NCBI GenBank assembly: GCA_964588985.1
Contig: CAZPQW010000003.1
Location: 1 to 64,000 of the forward strand
From: an uncultured Solirubrobacteraceae bacterium
Lineage (GTDB): Bacteria; Actinomycetota; Thermoleophilia; Solirubrobacterales; Solirubrobacteraceae
Length of the DNA stretch: 64,000 bases
Direction: 5' to 3'
Shown: positions 59,186-63,616 of the stretch, piece by piece
Layout of the letters: every line of letters starts with the position of its first letter
How positions within the stretch are numbered: the first letter of the stretch is position 1
Notes under the pieces: generated by a model
Seen by the model: the letters and a program-made list of their open reading frames with translations, nothing else
The model's database searches: none
What the model was told of the DNA's origin: nothing
Made by a program: the position numbers and the translations under genes

Positions 59186-60208
59186 TCAGGCGGCGGTCGC
59201 GGCCCCGGCCTTCTCGGCCAGGATCGCTGCGATGCGAGCACGGTGCCTCTTGGCGTCCCCGAGCAGCGCGGCGTCGAGCTGCGCGCGCTTGTAGAGCCAG
59301 TGGATGTCCGCCTCCCACGTGAAGCCGATCCCGCCGTGCGCCTGGATCGCGCTCGCCGTCACCTCGCGTCCGGCGTCCGACGCGCACGCCTTCGCCATCG
59401 CCGCCGCCTCCGCTAGCTGCCCCGCGTCGGCGTCCGCGGTCCATGCGGCGAACGCCGCGGTCGAGCGCGCCTTCTCGGTTTCGAGCAGCATCTGCGCGCA
59501 GCGGTGCGATACCGCCTGGTAGGCGCCCACGGGCACGCCGAACTGCTTGCGGTCCTTGACGTACTCGACCGTCATCGCGAGCGCCCTGTCGCAAACGCCC
59601 ACGAGCTCCGAGCTGACGGCCACGAGCGCACGGCCGAGCCCCGCGCAGCCGTCCGCGAGCAGCTCACCGCCGTCGCCAGCGCTCACCTGCGCCGCGGAGC
59701 GGGTGGGGTCGATCGACGCGAGCGGACTCACGTCGGCCTCGTCGCTCGAGATAACCCGCGCGGAGCCGTCGTCTTCCACCAGCACGATCAGCTGAGCGTC
59801 CGCTCCGCCGATCACCAGATCCGCAACGCCGTCAACCGCCGCGCCCAGCGCGCCGATCGTCTCGCCCGACGCCAATCCCGGCAGCCAGCGCGCCTGCTGC
59901 TCGGGCGAGCCGCCGTGCTCGATCACGCTCGCCGCCATGATGCTCGGGAGGTAGGGGACGGGGGCGAGCGAGCGCCCCAGCTCCTCGCACAAGATCGACA
60001 GCTCGATCATGCCGAGCCCCTGCCCGCCGTGCTCCTCGGAGATCGCGATCCCCGGCCAGCCCAGCTCGCACAGCTCGCTCCACAGCTCCGCGTCCATATG
60101 CGCGGACTCCGCGTACGCGCGCACCCGCTCTGGCTTCGCGCGCTCGGCCAGCAGGTCGCGCGCCGTGCGCTGGATCTCGCGCTGGTCGTCTGTCAGGCCG
60201 AAGTCCAT
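59186..60208 (-). CDS. Acyl-CoA dehydrogenase (shorter partner subunit)
   Basis: MDFGLTDDQ, EEHGGQG, R.QFG.PVG.YQAV.H, Q.HGGIGFTWE. Confidence 0.9.
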   Translation of the reverse strand: MDFGLTDDQREIQRTARDLLAERAKPERVRAYAESAHMDAELWSELCELGWPGIAISEEHGGQGLGMIELSILCEELGRSLAPVPYLPSIMAASVIEHGGSPEQQARWLPGLASGETIGALGAAVDGVADLVIGGADAQLIVLVEDDGSARVISSDEADVSPLASIDPTRSAAQVSAGDGGELLADGCAGLGRALVAVSSELVGVCDRALAMTVEYVKDRKQFGVPVGAYQAVSHRCAQMLLETEKARSTAAFAAWTADADAGQLAEAAAMAKACASDAGREVTASAIQAHGGIGFTWEADIHWLYKRAQLDAALLGDAKRHRARIAAILAEKAGAATAA

Positions 60209-60260: not shown

Positions 60261-61406
60261 TCACACCGCCACCTTCAATCGCGGCAATCCGAGCACGCGC
60301 TCCGCCACGATGTTCTTGAGCACCTCCGTGGTGCCTCCCTCGATCGTGTTGCCGCGCGCGCGCAGCAGCTCGTAGCTCCAGCGCGTGCCGCTCGTCAGTG
60401 CGTCCGGGCCCACCACGTCCACCGCCAGCTGCGTCAACCGCTGGTTGGTGTCCGACCACAGCCACTTCACGAGCGAGCCCTCGGGGCCCGGCTGGCCGTA
60501 GCGCTCGATGTCGGTGAGGCCCTTCCACGCGAGCAGGCGGATCGACTCGCAGCGCACGTGCAGCTCCGCGAGCTCGCCCGCGTAGTTCTCGTACACCCCG
60601 CGCTCGAGCGCCTTGCCGATCAGGTCGTCCAGCAGCTGGCGCAGGCGGATCTGCAGCGCGAAGCCGAGGCCCGCGCGCTCGTTCATCAGCGTCGTCAGCG
60701 CGACCTTCCAGCCGTTGCCGACGCCGCCCACCACGTTCGCGTCGGGGATCCGCGCCTCCTCGATGAACAGCTCGTTGAACTCCGCCTCGCCGGTGATCTG
60801 GCGCAGCGGGCGCACCTGCACCGCGTCCTGCTCCATGTCCATCAGGAAGTACGTCAGGCCCTTGTGCTTGGCCACCTCGCCGTCGGTGCGCGCGACGAGC
60901 ATGCACCACTTCGCGTACTGCGCGCCGCTCGTCCACACCTTCTGCCCGGTCACCACCCAGTCGTCGCCGTCCTTCACCGCGCGGGTTTTGAGCGACGCGA
61001 GATCCGAGCCCGCATCCGGCTCGGAGAAGCCCTGACACCAGATCTCCTCGCCTGAGAGGATGGGCGCGAGGTAGCGCTCCTTCTGCTCGGGCGTGCCCCA
61101 CACCATCAGCGTCGGTCCGCCGAGCAGCAGCCCGAGGACGTTGGCCGCCATCGGCACCCGTGCGCGTCCGATCTCTTCAAAATATATGGCCGACTCGGTC
61201 AGCGTTGCGCCTCTGCCGCCGTACTCGGCCGGCCATGCGGGCGCCGCCCAGCCGGCGTCGTAGAGCCGGCGTTGCCAGTCGCGCCTCCAGCCGTAATGGG
61301 CGTCCTCGCCGCCCTCCGTGGGCTCCGGCGCGGGCGGGTTCTGCGCGAGCCACGCGCGCAGCTCGTCGCGGAACGCGATCTCCTGTGGGCTGAAAGTTAG
61401 ATCCAT
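60261..61406 (-). CDS. Acyl-CoA dehydrogenase
   Basis: WP.EYGGRG, WCQGFSEPDAGSDLASL, GQKVWTS, FNE.F, TIEGGT.EV..NIVAERVLGLPR. Confidence 0.92.
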   Translation of the reverse strand: MDLTFSPQEIAFRDELRAWLAQNPPAPEPTEGGEDAHYGWRRDWQRRLYDAGWAAPAWPAEYGGRGATLTESAIYFEEIGRARVPMAANVLGLLLGGPTLMVWGTPEQKERYLAPILSGEEIWCQGFSEPDAGSDLASLKTRAVKDGDDWVVTGQKVWTSGAQYAKWCMLVARTDGEVAKHKGLTYFLMDMEQDAVQVRPLRQITGEAEFNELFIEEARIPDANVVGGVGNGWKVALTTLMNERAGLGFALQIRLRQLLDDLIGKALERGVYENYAGELAELHVRCESIRLLAWKGLTDIERYGQPGPEGSLVKWLWSDTNQRLTQLAVDVVGPDALTSGTRWSYELLRARGNTIEGGTTEVLKNIVAERVLGLPRLKVAV

Positions 61407-61488: not shown

Positions 61489-62160
61489 TCACGTGATGTC
61501 GATCGGCGTGCCGAGCTTCACCAGCGACCACAGCCGCTCGATGTCCGCGTTGCGCAGGCGGATGCAGCCGTGCGAGGGACGGCCGGGGATCAGCCGCGGT
61601 TCGTCGGTGCCGTGGATCCCCACCACGCCGCCGCCGGGCCATTCGCTGAGCGTCGGCGCGAATGCGCTCGTGCCGAGCGCCAGCGGCCCATACACGGGCG
61701 TGTTCGCCGTCACGAGCTTCTCCATCACGTAGAAGCGCCCGGACGGGGTGACGGTGCTCGCCTTGCCGACGCCGACGGGCGCCTCGAAGATCGCGTGCCC
61801 GTCGCGGAACAGCGTCGCGCGCAGGCGGCGCTTGTCGATCAGCAGGTAGCCGTCGACCTCGTTGAGCGTGCCGAGCGCTCCTCGCGGAACCCAGCCGGTG
61901 CGTCCGTTCGGACGTCCCGGAACCTCGATGCGGATCCACGTGTGGCCCGAGGCGAGCCGCTCGGAGTCGAGCGCCACGTACAGCTCCGCCTGCCCGTCAA
62001 CGGTCAGGAACCGCAGCCGCCCGACGACCGGGGCGTGCGCGGAGGGCGACGCGTGGATCGGCGCTTCCCCAGTCGGGTAGGCCCAGTGCGAGACGGTGCG
62101 CAGGTCCGACAGGCGCACGACAGGGCCCGGCGGCACGGGGAGGGGGGAGACGGCGAGCAC
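61489..62160 (-). CDS. L,D-transpeptidase (YkuD) with an N-terminal SH3-like region
   Basis: VGVG...T.TP.G.F, YGP.A, GIHGT......GRPSHGCIRL.N. Confidence 0.9.
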   Translation of the reverse strand: MLAVSPLPVPPGPVVRLSDLRTVSHWAYPTGEAPIHASPSAHAPVVGRLRFLTVDGQAELYVALDSERLASGHTWIRIEVPGRPNGRTGWVPRGALGTLNEVDGYLLIDKRRLRATLFRDGHAIFEAPVGVGKASTVTPSGRFYVMEKLVTANTPVYGPLALGTSAFAPTLSEWPGGGVVGIHGTDEPRLIPGRPSHGCIRLRNADIERLWSLVKLGTPIDIT

Positions 62161-62170
62161 CGCGGCGAGG

Positions 62171-63616
62171 CTAACCGGTGAACTTCGGCGAGACCACGTT
62201 CGAGCTGCAGCGCACGATCGTGATCGAACGCGACGCCTGCACCGCTTTGGCTGCGGCGGTGGCCTTGATCATCGTGATCCTCGCCTGCAGCCGGTGCGCA
62301 CCCACCCTGAGCTTGCTCGGGTCGACGGTGATCGACAGCAGTCCGCCGTGGGCGCTGTGCGCGGTGAGTCTCCTCAGTTTGTGCCCGTCGAGGTAGAAGA
62401 TCACGCTTGCGACGCCCGCCGACTTGATGCTTGCGCGGAAGCTCGAGCGCACGCAGCCCTGGGGGCCTTTGAGGCTTGGCACGGTCCCAGAGGCGAATGC
62501 CGCTACGCCGGTTTTGCCCGGGGTTTCGGTGGTTTTGGTTCCGAGCGTTCCGCCTGCGGGGGTGGGGGGCGAGGCGGTCGTGGTGGTCGTTTTTTCCTGT
62601 TCTTTTTCTTCTTCTTTTTTAGCCGGAGAGGTGGGCTTGACTTCCGTTACGACCGTGTTGGAGATTTTGGTTTCGGGCGAGCCGTCGCCGTCGGGGGGCG
62701 TGCCGGTGAGCATGACCGTGTTCGCGTAGGAGCCCACGGTGAGGTCGGCGTCGGTGATCAGGTGCGTGCAGAGGTATGCGCTCGAGGCGCCGGGGGCGAG
62801 GACGCCGCCCGCGGGACCGCCGGTGATCGTGCCGGCGTCGCAGCGCGGATCGGTGAAGGCCCCGACCGTCATCGGCACGTTGCCGGGGTTGTTGACGACG
62901 ATCTCATAGCCGATCGTCTGTCCCACTTCGCCCGTCTGCTGGGCGCTCGTGTACGGCGCGCCGGTACCTTCGACGCGCTGGAGCTTTTCCACCGACATTT
63001 CGGGCCGCGGGGGACACGTGACTTTCGCGTGGATGTCGAAGCCGCCGTTCATGCCGTTGGCGGTCGACCTCCTCCATTTGGCGTACCCGTCGATGATGTA
63101 GCTGCCAGGAGGCGCGTTGATGGGCGTGACGTTCGTGCCGGTGGAGCCGTCGAACGTGAACGTGGTGGAGGTGCTGACGTGGTCGACCTTGAGCTTCTCG
63201 GTGACGGTGTTGCCCGGGAGGTTGGGGAATTCCCTGAACGTCCAGGTGATCGACGTGCAGTTGATCAACAGCACGCCGTGGGTCCGTTCGTTCGAGCGCG
63301 CCTTGAGCAGTTTTTCGCTGGGGACGCGTTCGGCGGCCCTCTGTTCGCGGCGGGCCTTCTGCGCGGCCGCGCGTTCTTCCTGCTTGGCCTGCTTGGCGGC
63401 GGCCTTCTGTTCGGCGATCAGCGCCTGCGCTTCGGGAGAGCTCTGCGCGGCGGACTGCGCCTGGCCGGCGGGGGCGAGGATCGCCACGAGCGCCAGGGCG
63501 AGCGCGAGCAGGATCGCGATCAGCGGGAGCGTCTGGCCGCCCCTGCGTCGGGTCGTGACCGAGCCGTCGCGCCTCGGTTGCGACCGGTGCGGCCCTCCGT
63601 TGTTGCGAGTCTGCAT
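62171..63616 (-). CDS. Secreted multidomain protein (Ig-like/DUF11-type modules) ending in PKFTG
   Basis: SD gggaga; long signal peptide; GQTIGYEIVVNNPGNV module; Thr/Pro linker; Ig-like V.FYLDG; C-terminus VVSPKFTG. Confidence 0.8.
   Translation of the reverse strand: MQTRNNGGPHRSQPRRDGSVTTRRRGGQTLPLIAILLALALALVAILAPAGQAQSAAQSSPEAQALIAEQKAAAKQAKQEERAAAQKARREQRAAERVPSEKLLKARSNERTHGVLLINCTSITWTFREFPNLPGNTVTEKLKVDHVSTSTTFTFDGSTGTNVTPINAPPGSYIIDGYAKWRRSTANGMNGGFDIHAKVTCPPRPEMSVEKLQRVEGTGAPYTSAQQTGEVGQTIGYEIVVNNPGNVPMTVGAFTDPRCDAGTITGGPAGGVLAPGASSAYLCTHLITDADLTVGSYANTVMLTGTPPDGDGSPETKISNTVVTEVKPTSPAKKEEEKEQEKTTTTTASPPTPAGGTLGTKTTETPGKTGVAAFASGTVPSLKGPQGCVRSSFRASIKSAGVASVIFYLDGHKLRRLTAHSAHGGLLSITVDPSKLRVGAHRLQARITMIKATAAAKAVQASRSITIVRCSSNVVSPKFTG

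Follow-up and report, generated by a model that had tools for sequence, protein, structure and literature searches.

To our knowledge, sortases are the only enzymes so far known to attach proteins covalently to Gram-positive cell walls. For L,D-transpeptidases (LDTs) of the YkuD type, a 2025 review states that a tetrapeptide donor, that is one residue past the scissile bond, is required and that the protein acts as the acceptor in the known LDT-mediated protein attachments, all examples of which are Gram-negative (PMC12729407). Exchange of D-Ala4 for Gly by LDTs is reported in two further sources (PMC6428754; bioRxiv 10.1101/2021.02.24.432682). The latter also describes the YkuD paralogue LdtF/DpaA, which strips terminal Gly from stems, and according to the review DpaA is devoid of the Arg that is conserved in transpeptidases (PMC12729407). 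In this work, we analyzed a stretch of 64,000 nucleotides (contig C3:1-64000, referred to as the window) from the genome of an uncultured Solirubrobacteraceae bacterium (3.41 Mb, 68% G+C), in which a gene for a DUF7507-containing protein with the free C-terminal end P-K-F-T-G lies directly upstream of an LDT gene. The reading that we favor, and that we regard as an evenly balanced proposition, is that PxFTG-COOH serves as a sorting signal for a dedicated clade of LDTs in which a weakly SH3b-like N-terminal domain precedes a YkuD domain carrying a W-P-G-G-G loop. Our literature search, whose coverage left out most subscription journals, yielded no description of an FTG tail or of an LDT using a protein as donor.

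Both genes reside on the minus strand. The DUF7507 protein is encoded by an open reading frame (ORF) at 62174..63616 (481 amino acids from the ATG at 63616) and ends in ...RCSSNVVSPKFTG, followed by the stop. Its C-terminal tail, S-S-N-V-V-S-P-K-F-T-G, comprises residues 471-481 (62174..62206), with P-K-F-T-G encoded at 62174-62188; the TAG stop lies right behind Gly481 (62171..62173), and relatives keep the stop directly after the G. As the stop follows Gly, neither a hydrophobic segment nor a basic tail is present beyond the motif. An intergenic spacer of 10 bases (62161..62170) separates the FTG stop from the GTG at 62160, with which the 223-residue YkuD L,D-transpeptidase begins (61489..62160); this copy is devoid of a signal peptide. 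Two statements of the original prediction, a tail without transmembrane helix or basic extension and an LDT starting 10 bases later on the same strand, are therefore borne out by the ORF coordinates. The LDT frame extends into the 3' end of the DUF7507 gene. That the two ORFs represent one frameshifted or fused gene was considered and rejected, because 98 of 120 homologues likewise stop right after FTG and because the LDTs of relatives carry starts and signal peptides of their own.

The pairing recurs within the same genome. Only four of its 22,185 stop-to-stop ORFs of at least 80 amino acids end in FTG, and three of these four are directly followed, on the same strand, by one of the six YkuD genes of the genome (rough binomial p ~3e-9). 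The three paired FTG proteins are unrelated secreted proteins: the DUF7507 protein, a 549-residue protein encoded on contig C1 and an Ice_binding/DUF3494 protein with a Lys/Arg-rich tail encoded on contig C10. The first two have the C-terminal domain alone in common. This conserved domain (residues 373-470, 62207..62500, minus strand) contains the invariant residues Cys388 and Cys470 and is recognized with 180.6 bits by a profile built from 106 homologue C-termini, which also matches a second protein of the same genome on contig C1. The C10 protein bears its FTG tail without an Ig-like domain, as do proteins from genomes G500 and G254.

Linkage is likewise apparent when the LDT is taken as the starting point. 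Among the best 80 of 196 related loci, mostly from metagenome-assembled genomes of Solirubrobacteraceae, 49 have an upstream gene on the same strand that ends in F-[TA]-G, 15 have a convergent FTG gene whose end is 3-223 bases away from the LDT stop, one (L061) has a convergent gene with a frameshifted tail, and 15 are without an FTG neighbor. The latter include a locus at a contig end, the syntenic loci L019 and L031 from which the DUF7507 gene is missing, L066 with a variant tail, and L078-L085. In most of the listed relatives the LDT starts 0-13 bases past the FTG stop, and this short spacing suggests tight coupling of the two genes. On a quick maximum-likelihood tree of the LDTs the label "upstream FTG" needs 6 changes, compared with 28.7 after shuffling, and none of 500 shuffles came as low. 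Of the 51 rows in one group, 48 are FTG-linked LDTs (support 83, not starred), and a second group corresponds to the convergent type. The proposal that linked LDTs belong to one clade thus holds insofar as they cluster on the tree, not in the sense of one strict clade. Using the DUF7507 protein itself as query, a metagenome scan returned 2 loci only, and a protein search found an orthologue in 6 of the 151 genomes of the family.

Two of the groups mentioned have neighborhoods of their own. The LDTs of L078-L085 form a sister group; they sometimes occur as tandem pairs and follow a cupredoxin-like gene, a gene for 215 amino acids and a gene for 220-238 amino acids with an Arg/Lys-rich C-terminus. 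In the convergent-type loci L057-L075 (e.g. L058:2383-2781, L061:1942-2781) the LDT is preceded by a conserved ORF of about 130-290 amino acids that ends in ...G-A-T-Y-T-Q-D-F-G-V-I-A and could be a third component of this locus type.

An LDT-independent search started from the tail. An 18-base DNA pattern encoding P-x-F-T-G plus T-R-R was run against 151 family genomes and gave 185 matches in 88 genomes, compared with about 44 for the reversed control (hand count). The 148 places examined are the 150 listed ones (35 others were not listed) minus two from genome G003; they comprise 112 true stops and 36 TGG codons, and sequence was inspected at all 112 stop places and at 8 of the 36 TGG places. 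As many as 102 of the 112 stop places terminate long ORFs with high G+C at third codon positions. An LDT of the window type lies within 1.8 kb downstream of 39 of these 102 FTG genes, for 37 of them within 600 bases, while none was found near the 10 non-gene pattern matches or near the 8 TGG controls. Adjacency was assessed with the coordinates of 145 of 267 LDT matches (the 150 listed, with the window's own genome and G003 left out), so that the resulting count is a lower bound: the LDT is the direct neighbor of at least 49 of the 102 FTG genes, 38 times downstream, once convergent, 8 times upstream and twice divergent. At the level of whole genomes, 73 have a close LDT (best E<=1e-60), and pattern matches occur in 64 of them and in 24 of the 78 others, G003 and G142 included, a tally for which a Fisher value overstates significance because the genomes are related. 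The FTG signal is far wider than one operon, and many FTG genes have no adjacent LDT. The linkage of YkuD genes to FTG tails, put forward as a check in the original prediction, is thus supported from three sides, the window's own genome, the loci found via the LDT and the genes found via the pattern.

Some of the FTG genes for which no listed LDT was found sit in tandem FTG arrays. Two arrays of four FTG genes with near-identical tails were seen, one with a single LDT behind the last gene (G086:C11:334668-354993) and one with no LDT nearby (G066:C6:586082-596227).

The tail itself is conserved over considerable evolutionary distance. The DUF7507 protein has 125 homologues at E<=0.001, 120 of which were listed and scored. 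An FTG end before the stop is present in 98 of these, at identities down to 38%, and PxFTG in 97, as the original prediction had required of homologues. The last Cys is located 12 residues from the C-terminus in 97 of the 98 FTG-ending proteins. Several of the closest database homologues end in FAG, FAA or FTA. The x of PxFTG varies: among the 98 homologues it is K in 65, R in 13, H in 13, E in 4, N in 2 and L in 1, and among the 102 pattern-found genes R (47) prevails over K (15), T, S and Q (8 each) and others. In the tails that lie beside LDTs, Pro occupies position -5 in 61 of 63, position -4 is K, R, H or N (K in 25 of the 63) and F-T-G is found throughout, an invariance that is due to selection as these tails were chosen for ending in F-[TA]-G. 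Because the x position varies, a Lys acceptor is not the conserved feature, and the tail Lys was rejected as a candidate acceptor on these grounds.

Tail and LDT also disappear together. In a same-genus sample of 101 genomes, 29 loci were returned, 24 of them with the C-terminal domain. The FTG tail is intact in 21 loci, and the LDT is next door in 20 of these. Two loci (L252 and L256) show a decayed tail and no LDT, the acyl-CoA dehydrogenase gene having moved up directly, and one decayed tail lies at a contig end where the LDT context is not readable. Two metagenome orthologues present the same picture: one, 86% identical, ends in P-H-F-A-G and the other, 39% identical, has lost the tail; both are without LDT and are followed by the same dehydrogenase. 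In total, the motif is lost in 4 of 4 testable LDT-less syntenic orthologues (Fisher p=4e-4), probably reflecting three or more independent events. In the window, two acyl-CoA dehydrogenase-like genes are situated directly 3' of the LDT on the minus strand (60261-61406 and 59186-60208). The former serves as syntenic anchor, since it directly adjoins the DUF7507 gene in all loci with a deleted LDT (L086, L087, L252, L256).

For structure prediction, LDT residues 14-223 (alignment of 52 sequences) were co-folded with substrate residues 373-481 (alignment of 62 sequences). The interface score ipSAE reached 0.77 (0.75-0.78 in three runs), while the best of 3 controls scored 0.02. Partner pLDDT was 87 or higher, and at least 97% of the contacts were common to the runs. 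In the calibration of the tool this mark is reached by 116 of 157 solved complexes and by 2 of 215 mismatched pairs, counts that hold roughly here as own alignments were used. The model places the tail at the catalytic Cys and His, in line with the original prediction. All tail residues from 473 to 481 belong to the predicted interface, which on the enzyme side is formed by the G-G-G-V-V-G loop 176-181, His183, Ser196-Cys199 and Arg201. The N-terminal domain of the LDT (residues 28, 30-32, 51-58 and 60) is predicted to pack onto the last strand and the disulfide region of the substrate (386-388, 438-440, 465-471). Recall from a known structure is unlikely, since we know of no solved complex of this kind. 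The co-fold supports binding, not catalysis.

The enzyme has a YkuD catalytic domain (residues 104-222, 61495..61851, minus strand; Pfam PF03734, E=1.7e-21, 77.8 bits, cut-off 23.4) with the motif GIHGT...SHGCIR, in which His183 (61612-61614), Cys199 (61564-61566) and Arg201 are found. Residues H183, S196, H197, G198, C199 and R201 are invariant across 52 aligned sequences. Because Arg201 is invariant, the enzyme looks like a transpeptidase and not like a DpaA-type amidase as judged from sequence. The closest solved sequences for the catalytic domain are B. subtilis YkuD (1Y7M, E=7.5e-17), which matches over this domain only, and E. faecium Ldtfm (1ZAT, E=1.2e-12). Relative to B. subtilis YkuD, an 11-residue insertion is present at residues 168-181 (about 61618-61659), just before the catalytic His, and contains an invariant W-P-G-G-G within a clade-specific loop, E-W-P-G-G-G (residues 173-178). 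This insertion is a mark of the entire LDT clade, and the generic YkuD genes of the same genome (L003, L004) lack it. As a marker of FTG linkage the loop was rejected, being common to linked and unlinked members of the clade. The N-terminal beta domain (about residues 17-100, 61861..62112, minus strand) is weakly SH3b-like: it matches Pfam SH3_3 (PF08239) with E=0.014 and 16 bits, under the cut-off of 27, and no sequence relative was found among solved structures. Neither Pfam nor NCBIfam holds a model for the FTG tail or for the LDT clade of the window, NCBIfam giving only sub-threshold matches to generic LDTs.

The DUF7507 protein has the layout of a modular surface protein candidate. At its N-terminus a basic stretch is followed by a 20-residue hydrophobic core at about residues 30-49, and inspection of the translation by eye points to a likely signal peptide (about residues 1-53, 63458..63616, minus strand) with a basic n-region, this core and an A-x-A-like end, so that the protein looks secreted. 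Next come a charged stretch and a beta-rich region, and then a linker rich in Lys/Glu and Thr/Pro, the C-terminal domain and the tail. The DUF7507 (DUF11-type) beta domain occupies residues 224-311 (62684..62947, minus strand; Pfam PF24346, E=2.2e-15, 57 bits, cut-off 27), and TIGR01451 from NCBIfam matches weakly, below its cut-off (E=0.0018).

Beyond the family, a phylum sample of 401 genomes showed the PxFTG pattern to be concentrated in the own family (6 of 8 sampled genomes), in family f31 (five genomes with 2-6 matches each) and in one genome of family f76. This last genome (G500, 3.8 Mb) has 33 matches, all of them true stops, compared with 1 control match. In f31 and f76 the matches end proteins that bear signal peptides, and Thr/Pro-rich linkers run straight into P-x-F-T-G; such linkers before the tail suggest wall display. 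Three f31 genomes (G254, G182 and G489, loci L224-L235) have long poly-Thr or Thr/Pro linkers leading into P-x-F-T-G-COOH, resembling the wall-spanning regions of sortase substrates, and one locus of G500 (L219, C1:125179-131392) comprises three tandem PxFTG paralogues of about 330-380 amino acids with signal peptides.

The analysis shows the motif together with its conservation, its linkage to the LDT gene, the joint loss of tail and LDT and a confidently predicted interface at the active site. Whether the LDT cleaves the Thr-Gly bond and transfers the protein, as acyl donor, to peptidoglycan is a question on which we stand midway between belief and doubt, with the chemistry inferred. The broader claim, that PxFTG-COOH is a new class of wall sorting signal of Actinomycetota without membrane anchor, carried by up to 33 secreted proteins per genome and read by an LDT of reversed polarity, and hence a second, independent sortase-like mechanism, falls a shade short of even. 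Cleavage, an acyl-enzyme and peptidoglycan as the acceptor, which we infer, would be accommodated in the following sequence. The FTG protein would be exported by its own signal peptide; the LDT, normally self-exported, would dock via its N-terminal domain on the last beta-strand of the substrate, and the free tail would thread into the catalytic cleft. Cys199 would then attack the proposed scissile bond, Thr480-Gly481, Gly would leave and a Thr-thioester would form, by analogy to the L-center/D-Ala-COOH of the tetrapeptide stem. Resolution of the thioester by a side-chain amine of a peptidoglycan stem peptide would yield a Thr-to-wall amide as from a sortase, with no need for a membrane-retention segment. 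By analogy, a free L-Thr-Gly-COOH end appears to be a credible donor for a YkuD enzyme, because both the D-Ala4/Gly exchange by LDTs and the Gly removal by a YkuD paralogue point to an L-residue-Gly-COOH unit as scissile for a YkuD site.

Several observations weigh against the sorting-signal reading. For 53 of the 102 pattern-found FTG genes, none of the 145 listed LDTs lies within -6 kb to +2 kb, and some members of the LDT clade are without FTG neighbor (L019, L031 and the cupredoxin-operon clade L078-L085). LDT-like genes exist in the f31 and f76 genomes (E 1e-31 to 1e-45), and none was found beside the listed FTG genes of these families, for which the signal alone is established and not the enzyme link. 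An inhibitor or a docking ligand could give the same co-fold as a substrate, and the LDT attachments covered in the review cited above all run in the opposite direction. The own genome encodes a sortase, as do 5 of 5 other genomes tested, and the F-T-G common to both signals could point to this enzyme. Finally, the window LDT has just 16 residues ahead of the mature-domain start R-L-S-D-L-R, with neither an n- nor an h-region.

The last point deserves closer consideration. In the region 62113-62268, which also holds these 16 residues, the LDT frame is open for 36 further codons upstream without ATG, GTG or TTG and reads there as a marginal signal-like stretch. Signal peptides are present in 47 of 49 LDT relatives (45 by script, 2 more by eye), in which 40-60 residues precede the mature domain and include both a basic stretch and a hydrophobic core, and the C1 and C10 LDTs of the own genome carry obvious ones. 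The two other LDTs without signal peptide are L011, which shows the same truncation independently, and L050. The lack of a canonical signal peptide, already remarked upon in the original prediction, is therefore real for the window copy, and the copy is atypical. It appears, going by its reading frame, to have lost its signal peptide and may not be exported. The missing signal peptide together with the losses in sister lineages suggests that the DUF7507 protein may be served in trans by the exported C1 or C10 LDT paralogues or that the window pair may be decaying.

Among other explanations, the most serious one holds that the LDT binds or trims the tail without ligation, either as a Gly-specific carboxypeptidase maturing the protein or with the tail as a pseudo-substrate or docking ligand by which the LDT is placed or regulated on the wall. 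We consider this unlikely, even though linkage, co-loss and co-fold fit it equally well and precedents exist: LdtF/DpaA is described as a Gly-specific carboxypeptidase on tetra-Gly4 stems (bioRxiv 10.1101/2021.02.24.432682) and LD-carboxypeptidase activity as a side reaction of LDTs (PMC12729407). What speaks for ligation is that DpaA, according to the review, is without the transpeptidase Arg (PMC12729407), whereas Arg201 is invariant here, that removal of a single Gly has no obvious purpose and that Thr/Pro-rich linkers suggest wall display.

The tandem arrays raise another option, namely that the Thr acyl-enzyme is resolved by the amine of another protein, which would result in protein polymers or a cross-linked surface layer, as with pilus sortases. 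DUF7507/DUF11-type domains are typical of fiber-like surface proteins, and some of the arrays, such as the four FTG genes in G086, end in one LDT; the four in G066 have identical tails. We nevertheless hold this to be improbable: no conserved Lys-containing acceptor motif was seen, and the substrates are unrelated (DUF7507, Ice_binding and one without family), so that a common wall acceptor fits better.

Since a sortase was found in every genome tested, exclusion of this enzyme by absence failed, and a housekeeping sortase could process the FTG tails while the LDT performs ordinary 3-3 cross-linking, perhaps for local wall remodeling. The own genome has a single sortase gene (C13:19329-19694), and the only classical sortase substrate found there (C10:65830-66318, plus strand; L-P-F-T-G, membrane segment and basic tail) is encoded upstream of the C10 FTG-LDT pair at a distance of about 4.5 kb. 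The shared F-T-G hints that the two signals may have a common origin, and the FTG genes of f31 and f76 are dispersed, without LDT linkage among those listed. Against processing by the sortase stand the absence of a membrane segment and basic tail and a motif out of the LPXTG register: with P at -5 in 61 of 63 tails, K, R, H or N at -4 and F at -3, T-G alone matches. It is known from sortase-labeling practice that a motif with a free Gly carboxylate at its end is a poor sortase substrate, whereas in LDT donors exactly one residue, with a free carboxylate, has to follow the scissile bond. As, in addition, the co-fold seats the tail in the LDT site and loss of the LDT alone goes along with decay of the tail, we judge a role of the sortase to be quite improbable.

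Classical Lpp-like tethering, in which the protein would be the acceptor and either a tail Lys or the mature N-terminus would attack a stem-peptide acyl-enzyme, has precedent on its side, since the known LDT protein attachments all proceed this way, several via a C-terminal Lys (PMC12729407), and position -4 of the DUF7507 family is most often Lys (65 of 98). It is very improbable here, as many members have R, H, E, N, L, T, S, Q, G or P at -4 while F-T-G is invariant and as a conserved free Thr-Gly end would have no role. That there is no direct functional relation, adjacency being inherited synteny and the tail the end of a structural domain, can be set aside as extremely improbable: many loci are indeed orthologous, so that counts are not independent, but three unrelated FTG families lie beside LDTs in one genome, the arrangements are of four kinds (upstream, downstream, convergent, divergent), the tail also occurs without an Ig-like domain, and co-loss and co-fold add to this.

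If PxFTG-COOH is indeed a sorting signal for the LDT clade, it would constitute a second route of surface display and a new reaction class for a carbapenem-sensitive enzyme family. The simple rule "secreted plus PxFTG end" would then allow the surface proteome to be annotated in soil Thermoleophilia, which are abundant and mostly uncultured, and in at least two further families of actinobacteria, and the tail could possibly provide a compact ligation tag for protein engineering, with one leaving residue and no membrane segment.

The FTG system resembles the sortase/LPXTG system in its C-terminal Thr-Gly signal, in a Cys transpeptidase often encoded beside its substrates, in the proposed product, a Thr carboxyl amide-linked to a stem-peptide amine, and in modular surface substrates, some with Thr/Pro-rich linkers. 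It differs in that the enzyme has the YkuD fold, in that P-x-F-T-G stands at the very end with a free carboxylate and in that the Pro of the tail is one position further from Thr-Gly. Short C-terminal tags on unrelated secreted proteins, many per genome and with the enzyme sometimes adjacent, are also the hallmark of the exosortase/PEP-CTERM, archaeosortase/PGF-CTERM and rhombosortase/GlyGly-CTERM systems. Their tags all come with a transmembrane helix and their enzymes are membrane-embedded, while the FTG tag has neither a transmembrane helix nor a membrane-embedded enzyme. With the tethering of Lpp, OutB, LimB and beta-barrel proteins (E. coli LdtA/B/C, Dickeya, Coxiella, Brucella, Legionella), the proposed system would share a YkuD enzyme that joins a protein covalently to peptidoglycan, and some substrates are recognized there by C-terminal residues (PMC12729407). 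In these cases, all from diderms, the stem acts as acyl donor and the amine comes from the protein, either from a Lys side chain or from the N-terminus. The FTG system, found in an actinobacterial lineage of the monoderm type, has a free Thr-Gly end and no required Lys, which implies reverse polarity to Lpp-type tethering. D-Ala4/Gly exchange by LDTs and the activity of DpaA/LdtF are similar in that YkuD sites accept or cleave a terminal L-residue-Gly-COOH, yet their substrates are muropeptides and not proteins. B. subtilis YkuD (1Y7M, 4A1I) and E. faecium Ldtfm (1ZAT), finally, have the His/Cys/Arg motif in common with the window LDT, from which they are set apart by the 11-residue W-P-G-G-G insertion that the latter carries in the predicted interface with the tail.

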